Shown here piece by piece: positions 9,448 through 62,800 of a stretch of DNA of 64,000 nucleotides (the stretch's first letter is position 1; each line of letters opens with the position of its first letter). Location of the stretch: the NCBI GenBank assembly GCA_977018835.1, contig OZ361256.1:6386001-6450000 (forward strand), in the 5' to 3' direction. The notes beneath the pieces are model-generated. The model did no database searches and was not told where the DNA came from. It saw nothing but the letters and a program-made list of their open reading frames with translations. Made by a program: the position numbers and the translations under genes. The DNA is from Minutocellus sp. GHC0000111 (Eukaryota).

Positions 9448-9611
9448 TATTAGTAGTTGTCCCTGGTACTCAGTGTACCGGTAGTTCCCCACCGCCGAGA
9501 GGTGGTATGGTTGCTTCGCTTGTTGTTTACGTTTTATTATCAGCAGGGTGGTCTGTCCGTCGTTAATTGTTCGGCATCTTCTCGGCGCGGCTTCACGGCC
9601 CCGTTTGATGA

Positions 9612-9646
9612 GTAGGCCTACCTAGGCCTAGGCCTAGGCCTAGGTA
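9612..9646. repeat. Palindromic (TAGGCC)n tract; insertion target of the mariner, continued at 13128-13144
   Basis: gtaggcctacctaggcctaggcctaggcctaggTA ... TAggcctacctaggtac. Confidence 0.85.
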
Positions 9647-12600
9647 CCTTTCGGTTTCAGAGGATTTGTAGAGGGTATACCAATAACCCCTAAAAAAGGT
9701 CATTCTTGCACCCATTTCTCATTTCCCACCCCACGTGTTTTGTTAGTCGACATTCTCTTCGGGAGGAACGCAAATACTCCTCAACTCGTGGATATCTACT
9801 GGACCTGCTCATTCAGTAGGTTGCCACCGACCAGTAGTATCCACTGAATTCGCAGGTCCAGTAGATTCTGGCAGGAACACATGTGTTTTTTGGTCCCCCG
9901 CACACCCTCTCACACACACCGCAACCCCCCGCAAATTTTGTGACGATGACGACGACCAACCAGACCACGCCCAAAAAATACAAACGCAGCAGAACTTCGT
10001 TCTCAGGGAGCAAGAGAGGCAACACCAAGGCATCCAGGAAGGCGGCAAAGGCGGCAGCTGAGCCGAAAACACCATCGCCGAGCGCAAACACGTCGAAGAA
10101 GCGGCCACGGTCAAATTCGCCCCCGCGCCAAACCGTCACCGTCGTCGGCGAAGAAGAGGACGGCCCCTCCTCCTATCCCCATGGCCTTTCTCCTTGCAGC
10201 AGATGTCATTCGAAGGGCTGGTAAGGATCTGTGGTGGAGAGTAACCCCCGATTCCTGCGGCAAAGATGACATTTGTGTTGGCTCTCGGCAGAAATGGGAA
10301 GACGTCCTCCCTGCTTTCATCGAGGCCGACTTGTTGCGTTCCAAGTCCGTCGGTGGAGGAAAGTATGAGCTACAGTGCAACGAGGAAAAATGGAAGGATA
10401 TGCAGCAACATCTCAAGGAGCATTGTAGTTTGAAGTTGCACTTGTCGACGAGTCGGCCGACCGAGAGGGAAGACAAGACGCAGGGCGCTTTGTGTTTGTG
10501 TGCTCACAGGTTGCGTAAAAAGAAGGAGGACAACCACCCGAAATTCTCTGGACCGGAGGGACAGAAGGTGCACGAGAAAAGAAATCCCGATGAAGTTCTG
10601 TTCTCTGGGCGCTCGACTGTCTCTTAGCTACTGAGCTAGGTGAGAGGTTGTCAGCTCACAGAAAGGAGGCACAGTCAGCGCATTGCGAAGCAAGAGTAAA
10701 ATCACTAGTCGACGAGGCCAAGAAACTGGGTTGGATGCCAGCAAGTCTCCTCAGCATGCTGAAGGGAACTGGTGATGCTACTTCTTCCGCCACTGAAGCA
10801 GCAGCTGCAGCCTCCGCCACCAATGATGAAGGTTTAGGAGGAGCCGACACTTCCGTTGTCTGTGCCACCTCCAGTGACATTGATGAACAGGTAAAGGTCG
10901 CTCTCGGCCTCGACTTTGTTGTTCGGATGGCCAACGATGACATGCTCCGTCCTCCTCGTCCCAATGCAACCAACCGTCACCGAACCAATGCCAATCAGAA
11001 AAGAAAAGCAGGCGAATGAAAGAATGCGGTTCAGCGCCGTGGCTCTCGCGGATTGGTGGGGATGCGGCGACCCAACTCGCACGCATGAAGACCGGCAACA
11101 AATTGCAACTGCCGCGTGTCGGCAAGTTGCGTGCGATCACGGTTGTGCCAAGTCAACCGGTGGTTCTCAGCTTTACAAGTGGAGAGACCAGCTCTACAAA
11201 AGCCTTACTGATGGCATCAGCAATCCCATCGGCAGAAAGGAGGTTCGTGGAAGGAAGGCACACACGGACATGATCGAGGAGAAGGAGCCAGGATGTCTCC
11301 GCGAGCTGCATCGGTGTGCTACTCGGATGAAGGGTGCGATGGCAACCTTTAAGGAGCTAGCTGACTGTGTGAGCGCAAAATCAGCTACTCCAGATGAAGA
11401 CAGGCTGACAATTAGTCTCCATCGTCTTCAGCTTTTTCGCTGGTGGAAAAAGCAAGGCGGCAAGGAGAAGTCGTCGATCGAGAAGCCGAGGCTCACCCCC
11501 GAACAATGTTGTAGGAAGCGACTTGATTGGATCGAAAAGTGGGAGGACATTACGACCGATCCCAACATTCCTGTAGCGCATCTTGATGAAAAGTGGTTTT
11601 ACACTACTACTCGGCGACGAAAGATCAAGATGTTGCCACTTTCTGACGAAGAACTAAGTAGTCCGAACCTCGCGTCTGTCCATGCTTCCGAGGCAAGCCC
11701 GAAAATTCGATCCAGAAGATGCCCTGTCAAAGTTATGTGTCTTGGAGTTGTTGGCCGACCAATGAAGGATGAAACCAAAGACGTTGATTTCAATGGGCGC
11801 ATCATGATCAAGAGAGTCGCCAGGGAGCAGAAGGTGGAAAAGCTTGCGCGCAATCAGAATTATTTCTCTCCAGATGCTAAGGTCAACGATGCGCTAAAAA
11901 ATGACAAAGATTGGCGCGACATTTACGACGAGAGTGCTGACATGACCACCGGCCATCTTTGCGACCACATTGCCGAAATCTACGGCCTTTCTGAGTTTGT
12001 TACACAGCGATTGGAACTTCAATGCGAGGACTATAAATCCGACGGTCAGGCAAAAAGTCGCAAGCATGCCGCTGTTGGCTACACAATCAAAAGATCTCGA
12101 GTCTCAAGCGACACACTCCTGATAGCAATGGAGAGAAGGTGAAGGTTGAGATCGACGACCTTGAGCTCGGGGTGCGGTATCAACGGGGCGATAAGGTTAC
12201 CAAGGACTGTAGCTGCAACTCCAAATGGATGTTGGAGACTATGAATGAGGTCGGGGAGGCGATTCGAGACGCACATCATTGGGTGAAGTGGGATCCACAA
12301 AACATTCAGGAGTCTGATGTTATGTATCTTATGATGGACAATGCCGGCGGTCATGGGTCCAATGAAGCAGTTGAGAAGTACACCGAGGACCTCAAAAACA
12401 AATATAAGATTGAGATAATCCAGCAGGTTCCTCGGTCGCCCGAGACAAATGTTCTTGATCTCGGCATCTGGATGTCTTTGCAGTCGGCCGTCGAAAAGGA
12501 GCATCGCGGTCAGAAGAATGATGCGAATGCTCTTGACAAGACTGTGATGAAAGTATGGGCCAATGTCGCATCAAAAGAGGCCTTTCTCAATGTATTTGGA

Positions 12601-13127
12601 AAACTTCCAGTGATATATAACAACATCAAGAGAAGTCGTGGCGGTAACAATCTTGTGGAGACCAGACGGGGAAAGGCTGGTCTCGCAAAAATTGCCGAGG
12701 AAGAAGCTGAAGAGGATGGTGAACCACTCTGGCCAATTGATGCTCCCGGCGAAGATGATGACATTGAGGACGACATAGATGAAAATGATGAAGACGATGG
12801 AGTCATTGATTTGCTATAACTTATCATAGCATGTCCATTTCTATTCATTACATTTGGTGCTTCCAAAAATGTATTTTTTCCCGGGGTGAGGAATGCAAAT
12901 GTCGAAAAAAATCATCACATAATGTACATTTATTGGTTCTGGTGCACAACATCTCTCGACTATATGTAGAAGTTGGTGACCATAACTTGGTTCTTGCCCC
13001 GACTTCCATCTTTGCCGTCATTTATTCCTCGGAGTTAGAAAAAGTGAGCTTGGATTTTTGGTCTGGTGTGGTCGTGTTTCTAATACGTCATCATCACGTC
13101 ACTTTCAAATCCTCTGAACTCGAAAGG
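9647..13127 (+). mobile_element. Tc1/mariner DD39D DNA transposon, full length (3481 bp)
   Basis: 22-bp TIRs at 9647-9668 and 13106-13127 (20/22 identical), TA TSD at 9645-9646 and 13128-13129, internal transposase. Confidence 0.93.
9946..12819 (+). pseudogene. DD39D transposase, frameshifted into about five ORF pieces
   Basis: LDEKWFY (D 11585), KVMCLGVV, MDNAGGH (D 12337), PRSPETNVLDLG (D 12457); 39 residues between D2 and D3. Confidence 0.88.
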
Positions 13128-13249
13128 TAGGCCTACCTAGGTACGACACGAGTGCATGCTTATCCTTGACGCAAGCCAGCTCCGTCTGGGCGGCCTCTGA
13201 TTCCGTCTTGGCGACACTTGTCTCGGCCTTTTGTACGGCGGTATCAGTG

Positions 13250-32839: not shown

Positions 32840-32998
32840 GTAGCCTACGCCTAGGCCTACATGTACCTACTACTAGTAGTACGTGTACCTAGGCCTAGGT
32901 AGCTAGGCACGCCTACGCCTACGCCTACGCCTTCGCCAAGCCGGAACCCGGATGCGACGATCTAACGAGCTCGAACGGCTCGAACGGCTCGAACCTCG
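32840..32998. repeat. Palindromic/simple-repeat tract in a divergent promoter
   Basis: cctaggcctacatgtacc, cctaggcctaggtagctagg, repeated gcctac, gctcgaac x3. Confidence 0.8.
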
Positions 32999-59808: not shown

Positions 59809-62800
59809 ATGTCCTCGCGTGGCAGCAGCAGCAGCGGCAGGGACCGATACCCAGCGGGGGGAATGTCTTCATCGTCGACCGGCTCCCGGCGGAGCCACCA
59901 GCAGTCTCAACAGAGGGACCGGGTCAGTACCAGCGGTGGTGGAAGCCGAGGTGGTGTTGGTGCTCCCCTTCCCCAACAGCAGGCTATGCAGCGAATGTCG
60001 GGAGATTACGACAGCATCGAGCGTGCGAGAACGGGGAGCAGCATCGATTCTTGGCAGATGCAGCAGCGGCAGTATCATGCTTCGGCTGGTCGAGCCGGTG
60101 CAGGTGCTGGCGCATCAGCAGCGGGGGTTCCGCCCCCACCTCCTCCGCCACAGCAGCCGCCGCCGCCGCAGCAGGTTATTCATGCCGTCCCATCGAATGT
60201 ATCGGCCAACACCTCCATGCTCTCCACAACGACGCCGGCTCAGGCCATATCGGTGGAATCGCCCCTCCCGCCCGTGGTCCAGCGCTCCCTCGGCGACCGG
60301 TCCTACGATAAGCGGAAGAATGCCGCATTGGAAATTGAATCGCTCGTAAAGTCCCTGCAGGAGAGCGGCAATTCGGCAATGGTCCATTCGGTACTGGTCA
60401 TCTTGTCGAAGGACTTTTGCACCAGCATGAATGCGAATTACCGCAAGGGTGGTCTGATCGGTATCGCCGCCACGGCAATTGGACTAATGGCAAATACGCG
60501 GCATTATCTTGATGCAATGCTCCCCCCGGTCTTGCAATGCTTTGACGACCCGGAGAGTCGGGTCCGATATTACGCCTGCGAGAGTTTGTACAACATTGCC
60601 AAGGTCGCCCGGACGGCCATACTGCGGTACTTCAACGACATATTTGACGGCTTGACCAAGCTCTTTGCCGACGTCGACGTCGACGTGAAGAATGGTGCCA
60701 GCCTCCTCGATCGGCTCATCAAGGATATTGTGACTGAATCCGATACCTTCCAAGTGGAACAATTTCTTCCTCTCCTGCAGAACTACATCCGACGGACCAA
60801 CCCGTACATCCGCCAGCTGCTCGTGAGTTGGATTACAGTCCTGGACTCCGTCCCGGACATCAACATGATTGACTACTTGCCGGACTTCCTTTATGGGCTG
60901 TTCAACATGCTTTCCGATTCTAACCGGGAGATTCGGCAGGCGGCCGACAGTGCTCTGTCGGAATTTCTCCGGGAGGTCCGAACGTCGACCGTGGTGGAAT
61001 TTGGCCCCATCGTGTCGATATTGGTTTCGCAGTGTCACTCGCGTGATCCGCTAAATCGGTTGACGGCCATGACGTGGATGGCGGAGCTCATCCATCATCC
61101 TCATTCCGGTGGCGATGCCCTCCTTCCCTTTCACGCGGAGGTTTTGGCCGCCATCATGTCGTGCCTGTCAGATACCGAGGCCGAGATCCGCACCGTGTCA
61201 GAGCGCACCAATGCCGACCTTCTCACCCTGGTTCGCGACACGGAGGGTGGTTTCGAACTAAGGCCCCTGCTGGATACACTGACCAAGGAGTCGTTGGGGA
61301 AAGACGACGTTCCGACCAAGATGGCGGCGCTCCGGTGGATCAATATGTTGCTCGAGAAGAGAAAAGATGACATGAAGGTGTTTATTCCCGACCTACTTCC
61401 AGTGCTTCTTCGCACACTATCTGATCCCAGCGATCCTGTCGTCATTCTTACCCTCCAAGTGCTCTCTAGAATATCACTCGCCGATCAAAAGGGAATAGGA
61501 CGAGCGTCTCTCTTGGGTTCATCATCTTCATCTAGCAGCAGAAAGTCGACGTTGGAAAAGGCGAGGCAACTTCGTGCTAGGCAAAAGGGTGAAAGGGGCT
61601 CTCTTGAGTCGGCTTCGTTGGCTGACATTCCCGGCGTCCCTCCGCCCGAAGATCAATTTCAGATGGTCTTGAATGCAATTCTTGGTCTATTTGCCTCTGA
61701 CAGACGATTGCTCGAGACGCGCGGATCTCTCGTCGTGCGCAAGCTCTGCGTTTTGTTGAATGCCGAGAGTGTTTACATTCGCCTGGCAGGAGCTCTATCT
61801 TCTGTGGACTTTGCTTTGTCCGGTGAAGGAGATAATGCAACTATTGTTGGTACTACAATTGGAGATCAGGGTCCGGAGGTATCAAATTACAGCCTCGAAT
61901 TCGTTGGTACGATGGTTCAGACACTGAATCTCATCCTACTTACCGCGCCAGAACTTCACGGCTTACGTTCACTCCTATCGAAGAGCTTTGCCAAGAAGAG
62001 TGCTGCTAGTGGCCAAGAGAGCAAGTTGGCAGATGACGATGCAGTTGATGGTGCCCGAGTCTTTACAGCTCTCTTCCATTGCTGGTGTCACAATCCCGTT
62101 GCCACTTTTTCGCTTTGTCTTTTGGCCCAGGCCTACGATGTCGCCTTCGCCCTTGTCAAGAAGTTTAGCGAACTCGAGGTGACTGTTGGCTTCCTAATGC
62201 AAATTGACAAGCTGGTTCAGCTCCTGGAAAGTCCAATCTTTATTCATCTTCGGCTACAACTGCTCGACGTTGAAAAGCCACAGCACCCGTATTTGCTCAA
62301 ATCTTGCTATGGTCTGCTCATGCTGGTTCCACAGAGTGATGCGTTCCGATCGCTGAATGATCGCCTTGCAACAGTGTGCAACCTTAGGGGCAACCTTGGG
62401 GTCAGCCAAACCATCACGTCGAACGAACCGATGGCATTGTCTACTAGTCAGTGGGCTCCTTCGACGAAGCATCTGTTGGAACGATTTAATGAGGTTACCG
62501 AACTTCATCGGATCGAAATGGAAAGAGCGAGAGAAAAGGCAGAAATGGAGATTCAGCCACCCTCAGTTGATGTCTCCAACAATCATGATGGAATAGCCCC
62601 ACCACTAACCCCATCGGGAGTGTCTCTGGCCCCTTCCACCCCTGGAGGCAAAAGCGTGTACATCCCCGGCGGTAGTGTTGTTGGCGTGAAGGGACTGGCA
62701 CAACCTCATTTGGGCCCGCCCCCTCCACCGTCGCCAAGCAGTCGGCCTGGTTTCCTACCTCAGACTGGGCCGAAAGCAATACGTCCAAGCGGCCGAGTCA

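Follow-up and report, generated by a model that had tools for sequence, protein, structure and literature searches.

Context-specific TpA-to-TpG/CpA hypermutation among copies of a putative mariner-like transposon in the diatom Minutocellus sp. GHC0000111

To our knowledge, the known mutagenic genome defences, such as RIP and APOBEC, make C-to-T changes. The action of RIP is weaker near the edges of repeats. Fungal RIP resembles the process described here in that dinucleotide-specific transitions pile up independently in dead transposon copies, however RIP turns CpA into TpA, whereas the diatom process turns TpA into CpA or TpG, with C>T before A occurring at 0.0007 per call. A closer counterpart is found in the rhizarian Bigelowiella natans, in which TpA>TpG/CpA mutations, verified with both Illumina and Sanger sequencing, arise de novo in integrated viral DNA at ~1000 times the background (Mettrop et al., bioRxiv 10.64898/2026.01.13.699255). 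The same preprint proposes ADAT2 as a candidate enzyme, reports that TpA-poor genes are enriched in DDE and reverse-transcriptase domains, and cites DNA editing by ADAT2 of amphioxus, whilst itself stating that natural ADAT2 action on double-stranded chromosomal DNA at such a scale is unproven. Its main text gives no 3′ pyrimidine rule or gradient, and the words “diatom”, “context”, and “flanking” are absent from it, with the supplementary mutation table being a place where context might be shown.

The signature at the diatom locus is shared with B. natans in its near-exclusive A:T>G:C change at TpA, its yield of both TpG and CpA, and its restriction to foreign or selfish DNA (in the diatom, one element in one window). 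The B. natans mutations are de novo and lie in single-copy, silent viral inserts of 25–186 kb, whereas those described here are historical and lie in a multi-copy, 3.5-kb intergenic transposon. The signature is already known from B. natans, and this is not its first report; the diatom transposon extends it, with a young cut-and-paste family caught part-way through the process, a centre-peaked gradient, and founder-fixed changes being the new features. No published report of TpA hypermutation in a diatom was found in the literature covered, which lies mostly outside the subscription journals.

The window, a stretch of 64,000 nucleotides (contig OZ361256.1, positions 6,386,001 to 6,450,000), holds one copy of the element, with no second copy found within these 64 kb, and no other recognisable transposon seen among the 35 of 56 long window ORFs inspected by eye. 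Judged by triad spacing, terminal inverted repeats (TIRs), TA target duplication (a feature of the PlantMar family), and size, the element appears to be a PlantMar-type DD39D mariner-like transposon (Table 1), the 39 residues that separate its second from its third catalytic aspartate (12337 and 12457) matching the DD39D spacing. The PlantMar (DD39D) Tc1/mariner elements likewise have the DD39D triad, short TIRs, and a length of 2–6 kb, and their range is given as plants and stramenopiles, with oomycetes, and not diatoms, named as non-plant hosts in the portion of the source covered (PMC7325037). The window element differs from these in a long insertion between the first two aspartates and in scores under the Pfam cut-offs, its homologues giving weak DDE_3 and HTH_Tnp_Tc3_2 matches below the cut-off, and the ORF pieces of the window giving nothing above it.

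Several further features of the element are recorded here for their own sake. An inverted repeat of 24 nt, its arms 25 nt apart, lies at 9794–9866 in the 5′ non-coding region and is a possible hairpin. A run of self-complementary TAGGCC/CCTAGG motifs surrounds the element (9612–9646 and 13127–13145), with similar palindromes, mostly intergenic, at 32850–32910, 34897, 53468, and 59754, and like motifs in the flanks of other copies, which suggests that the element may prefer these TA-rich palindromes as targets. The palindromes themselves stay unmutated, and are mostly of YTAR context.

Table 1. Coordinates of the element and of the regions of TpA loss in the window.
Feature	Coordinates	Strand	Remarks
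Putative DD39D mariner-like (PlantMar-type) cut-and-paste DNA transposon, dead copy, ~3.48 kb	9647..13127	+	Inverted arms, weak domain matches, siblings
Left TA target duplication (9645–9646) and 22-nt terminal inverted repeat	9645..9668	+	Contigs from other copies part from the window sequence about here
Right terminal inverted repeat and TA target duplication (13128–13129)	13106..13129	+	X2 and X3 contigs diverge directly past 13129
Predicted transposase ORF, broken by small insertions	9946..12819	+	Start approximate; catalytic Asp 11585, 12337, 12457
3′ part of transposase ORF	12177..12820	+	Lower TpA loss; 8 RTAY kept in window copy
RTAY-free core	10402..12176	.	16 inferred ancestral RTAY, all converted here (10 to TG, 6 to CA), plus 1 altered at 10451
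Peak TpA loss	11063..11740	.	351/388 family calls mutated at 10 RTAY Tyr codons (90%)
Family-fixed Tyr>His	12112..12276	+	12112 His 20/20; 12274 His 39/40; close relatives Tyr

The window contains 799 RTAY sites (ATAT, ATAC, GTAT, or GTAC), none of which falls between 10398 and 12177, leaving a gap of 1779 bp compared with 484 bp for the runner-up. The number expected in this gap is 27.7 at equal base frequencies and 22.8 at the rate seen elsewhere in the window, in agreement with the preliminary description of this DNA, which had reported RTAY to be absent over ~1775 bp where ~28 were expected; its count of eight RTAY in 12177–12820 is reproduced by our recount. At the rest-of-window rate the probability of an empty gap is 1.2e-10, or ~1e-7 once window position is allowed for, and the probability that none of the 37 TA steps within the gap is an RTAY is 1.3e-7. 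RTAY is, however, only fifth by gap × rate among 576 degenerate 4-mer patterns, two pattern pairs having larger gaps inside host coding DNA, so the gap alone is no proof and the claim is carried by the comparison of copies. Another RTAY-poor stretch lies near 61471–62658, within an intact host ORF of 1060 aa. Neighbouring host DNA retains RTAY, as first stated, at 16 and 14 sites per kb in the two flanks.

The earlier reading of the coding sequence stands in most respects. The segments 10916–12142 and 12177–12820 do belong to one ancestral ORF, however they lie in different frames in this copy, owing to a 2-nt insertion at 12081. All eight Tyr codons of the first segment are preceded by a pyrimidine, as described, two of these (11861 and 12080) being at small insertions private to the window copy, and 15 of its 24 Cys/His codons follow a purine, close to the ~14 originally given. 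The codons at 11294, 11309, 11315, 11720, and 11738, picked out as Tyr-like positions, are Tyr or Tyr/Phe in homologues from other hosts and mixtures of His and Cys in siblings. The upstream stretch ALCLCAH, also proposed as former Tyr, proves so for its first Cys only (CTT-TAT, a YTAY site, from the DNA row at 10492 and sibling sequences), and not for the rest.

Protein searches recovered hundreds of sibling proteins of ~90% identity on megabase contigs, in clusters of up to 275 members, together with more distant relatives (40–77% identity) on short contigs. The analysis set, which samples only part of the family (the largest cluster, for example, is represented by 15 of its 275 members), comprised 175 usable sibling fragments and 803 codons, with most counts taken from translated fragments and silent changes thereby missed. 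The window's own product (P0069), two near-duplicates (P0055 and P0061), and residues by gaps or in low-identity stretches were removed before counting. P0256 was reassigned to the close relatives partway, for the context model and later counts, and sites 10632, 10941, 11269, 11461, 11947, and 12216 (ambiguous) and 12323 (a compound site) were kept out of the context model. A metagenome scan produced one confirmed locus (a 143-bp match) from 453 candidate stretches, which was left out of the analysis.

Tabulation of substitutions by context across copies, the check that the preliminary description had proposed, reveals a marked excess of A>G at TpA, at 0.214 per residue call (925/4326 in the 175 fragments) compared with 0.0006–0.0043 for the other classes. 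A>G occurred at 0.0030 per call after A, 0.0038 after C, and 0.0009 after G, with C>T at 0.0043 at CpG and 0.001 elsewhere, and transversions at 0.0006, equal at TA and at other steps. Recurrent polymorphisms were TA/CA/TG in 36 of 37 cases in the initial set and, after its enlargement, in 47 of 50 (one of the three others being a compound TA site), and take the form of Tyr/His/Cys, Ile/Thr/Met, and Val/Ala, or of Thr/Ala or Met/Val where the preceding codon ends in T. A few recurrent A>G/T>C changes, in 2–4 copies each, were also seen at the apparently non-TA steps 10941, 11269, 11461, 10595, and 11102, possibly reflecting off-target leakage or an ancestral TA that could not be placed.

The direction of change is given by the ancestral state. 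Across 25 Tyr codons the siblings carry Tyr in 464, His in 277, Cys in 236, and Arg in 2 of 979 calls, whilst other-host homologues at these codons carry Tyr 187, Phe 36, His 10, Cys 1, and Arg 0 times; the homologous transposases of other hosts thus keep Tyr/Phe where Cys/His might have been shared. Close relatives of 82–95% identity (P0020, P0296, and P0256) have Tyr at nearly all of the hot sites that they cover, and with outgroups and close relatives in agreement the ancestor held TA. Three close relatives on short contigs (P0256, P0296, and P0307) are internally deleted derivatives with Tyr at nearly all covered hot sites, and appear to represent hosts or subfamilies in which TpA is lost rarely if at all, which makes them useful negative controls. 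That TAY>TGY and TAY>CAY represent one event on opposite strands, as originally argued, is evident from the presence of both products in the copies and from paired DNA rows. Were both strands to stay targets after the first change, ~184 CG double mutants would be expected; only 2 were observed, which indicates that an intact TpA is required.

Resolved by strand, the mutation rate is 0.33 at RT[A]Y (679/2073), 0.19 at YT[A]Y (180/970), 0.04 at RT[A]R (32/784), and 0.006 at YT[A]R (2/343), with the 3′ pyrimidine raising the rate ~tenfold in the fitted model. Of the A>G change specific to RTAY that was first proposed, the direction (TA to TG or CA) therefore survives and the motif does not: the target is T[A]Y on each strand, and not strictly RTAY, with YTAY also mutated (19%, compared with 33% for RTAY). 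RTAY seems erased because both of its strands qualify as T[A]Y. As an exception, 11144 is mutated on the predicted T[A]A strand (His 18/46), and YTAY sites are uneven, with six YTAY Tyr codons nearly spared (12/226) and some YTAY junction sites 60–75% mutated, so the outer bases must matter too.

The loss of TpA also varies along the element. RTAY Tyr codons are mutated in 39% of calls at 10364–10376, 90% at 11063–11738, and 38% at 12023–12616 (90/238 over six codons), and a centre-peaked position term strongly improves the fitted context model. The identical hexamer GGTATC is mutated in 27 of 28 calls at 11720 compared with 15 of 31 at 12178 (p = 3.5e-5), whilst for TGTATC the difference between 11738 and 12325 is not significant (p 0.35). 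In seven of eight long copies spanning the core and the 3′ region the core is more mutated, with P0243 fully mutated in both; position and wider sequence context are, however, partly confounded. The RTAY gap of the window copy arises because RTAY presents T[A]Y on both strands, because the core is the hot zone, and because all 16 core sites were lost in this particular copy.

Association at p<0.05 was found for 19 of 271 site pairs, where chance predicts 13.6, and at p<0.01 for 3; it was strongest among the 3′ sites 12403, 12613, and 12616. The sites are essentially unlinked, so each copy was mutated largely on its own, once inserted. Descent from a small number of mutated masters can be rejected for want of general linkage, with founder-fixed sites and the co-mutation of 12403/12613/12616 as the exceptions. 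The family-fixed Tyr>His codons probably represent changes that occurred in a founder before amplification. Load is overdispersed among copies (variance of z 2.4, 63 copies), which is compatible with a process that is on in some lines and off in others, as in B. natans; in the least-mutated long copy, P0041, 4 of 17 RTAY Tyr codons are changed. Background substitutions per copy correlate neither with TA load (rho 0.03) nor with insertion load (rho 0.20; n = 71), hence a simple age clock is not seen.

Small insertions form a second peculiarity of these copies. In the window copy 9 of the 11 listed insertions of 2–4 nt (region 9729–12081) are exact tandem repeats, and the siblings show 41 in-frame insertions compared with 5 deletions, with 26 of the 41 repeating a neighbouring residue. 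Host ORFs run unbroken for up to 4.7 kb, so a general assembly error is not the source, and the micro-duplications may reflect either a genuine process biased towards duplication or an effect of sequencing peculiar to repeats; no useful literature on them was found. A tie to the TA process is not supported, with none of the 11 listed window insertions containing TA, no correlation between insertion load and TA load among copies, and no centre peak.

Contigs of four runs were aligned to the element, with 40 of 60 differences listed, and 31 of these 40 are TA/CA/TG steps, including the silent sites 10399, 10848, 11368, 11659, 11851, and 12303 and the non-coding site 12950. X2 and X3, which are Illumina RNA libraries from two studies, contain both CA and TG alleles, with CA at 11315–6 and 11720–1 and TG at 11261–2 (fully in X2, partly in X3); these are assembled contigs rather than raw reads, possibly from another individual, and bear on the alleles of the family rather than on the letters of the window copy itself. 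In X1, summed contig depth leaves almost no TA at 11315 and 11720. The X2 and X3 contigs cover the whole element (window 9600–13200) and have a common 3′ flank beyond 13129, unlike that of the window, which hints at one common, possibly transcribed insertion, with carry-over of DNA also possible. The copy comparison, together with Illumina RNA contigs carrying CA/TG, supports a heritable change in DNA, one of the two readings first offered, over a basecalling effect. RNA editing was rejected, as A-to-I change of a sense transcript cannot give CA, and the DNA-type runs agree. Two further candidates were set aside: GC-biased conversion, which is expected to be context-free where the change here is confined to TA, and selection removing the element's own TA targets, which would not account for conserved Tyr being destroyed in dead copies.

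In the window, the change is confined to the transposon and host DNA is spared, so the claim that repeats are targeted is upheld only as far as one family in one window. In the host SMC2 gene 13 of 14 conserved Tyr are kept and one is Phe, with exons free of frameshifts, a control that is weakened by purifying selection; the SMC2 protein is 66–74% identical to its diatom matches, with the top match, at 92%, being a transcript.

The reading that we consider probable, albeit with considerable room for doubt, is that the copies independently gained TpA to TpG/CpA changes in chromosomal DNA through what is likely a mutator of the host directed against mobile DNA, for which an adenine deaminase of TadA/ADAT2 type, working on DNA, is the most likely candidate. 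We infer the identity of the enzyme, its recruitment, and its defensive function. Adenine would be deaminated to hypoxanthine and read as G at replication, and the resulting TG or CA step would no longer be a substrate. The enzyme would be recruited to the body of the element, perhaps via silent chromatin, fading toward the ends and the flanking genes, and the outcome would be inactivation of the transposase, whose conserved Tyr codons are seen to be converted. The cut-and-paste life cycle has no RNA step, so the change arises on DNA, and the transition-only spectrum, with transversions not raised, points to a miscoding base rather than to polymerase bypass. The TadA/ADAT2 enzymes share A>G change through inosine, and early TadA-derived editors favour YAC (PMC12703980), whereas the diatom target admits both T[A]T and T[A]C and requires T, not C, on its 5′ side. 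Counting against the favoured reading, the element is present in RNA libraries, whereas the B. natans region is silent; carry-over of DNA could account for that signal.

The same targeting may instead act through a different lesion, either the thymine of R[T]A, oxidised or alkylated so as to pair with G, or a 6-methyladenine that is later deaminated, produced by a repeat-directed modifying enzyme. Formyluracil and O4-methylthymine both miscode, and the strand-symmetric data fit a T lesion in R[T]A and an A lesion in T[A]Y equally. Diatoms also possess a RID-related DNMT4 of unknown function (PMC9998398). However, the strict requirement for a 5′ T and the preference for a 3′ pyrimidine recall TadA-type editors (PMC12703980), and we consider this route unlikely. 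Less likely again is that no dedicated defence exists, with ordinary TpA lesions or polymerase errors going unrepaired in silent chromatin, or with an error-prone repair polymerase at work there. Both the centre-peaked gradient and the overdispersion of load fit an effect of this kind at the level of a chromatin domain. The rate of A>G after A or C (0.003–0.004) lies slightly over that of non-CpG C>T (0.001), and small insertions are frequent in the copies; these insertions do not, however, follow TA load. Pol eta favours a WA motif and gives a mixed spectrum, and a Pol eta-type error, as raised in the preliminary description, is disfavoured here, with A>G after A only 0.003, 70 times below that after T, and transversions at TA at background. 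A rate ~1000 times background that is on in some lines only, as in B. natans, also speaks against repair failure (bioRxiv 10.64898/2026.01.13.699255).

Two further explanations fare worse. Miscalling of a repeat-specific base modification by long-read sequencing draws on the fact that most sibling proteins are encoded on long contigs that probably share the window's assembly, however the CA/TG alleles of the Illumina RNA contigs come from two studies and from libraries not expected to carry DNA modifications, the depth in X1 leaves almost no TA at two of the hot sites, and miscalling would give neither family-fixed changes nor the exclusivity of CA/TG; we regard it as very improbable. Ordinary CpG decay from CG ancestors is scarcely credible. 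Decay of 5mC classically yields TG/CA polymorphism, and CpG decay does occur here to some extent (11948 and 12217; rate 0.0043), but with TA as the ancestral state it is ruled out as the source of the pattern: outgroups carry Tyr or Phe and not Arg, near relatives carry Tyr, Arg makes up only 2 of 979 sibling calls, and decay is seen in 7 of 869 calls at true Arg-CGN codons.

It was only in 2026 that an A-to-G process specific to TpA came to be reported, from a single alga and with no enzyme or targeting rule as far as the main text goes (bioRxiv 10.64898/2026.01.13.699255). The present family gives a hunt for the enzyme its strand motif (T[A]Y), the rule that one change protects a site, near-independent copies, and a gradient, with hundreds of near-identical substrates in one genome. 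We further suggest, as a tentative extension that may well prove wrong, that an A-to-G counterpart of RIP is common to diatoms and chlorarachniophytes. In it, a natural adenine deaminase of double-stranded DNA, favouring T[A]Y, would load onto the body of every new transposon copy while leaving the ends and the adjacent genes untouched, and cut-and-paste elements would be killed in the course of a single burst. If true, such a deaminase would be a new kind of base editor. Partial TpA loss of the kind seen here, with a TpA rho of 0.44 for the whole element compared with 0.62 for the rest of the window, escapes TpA-depletion scans, and the process may therefore be wider than composition surveys suggest.
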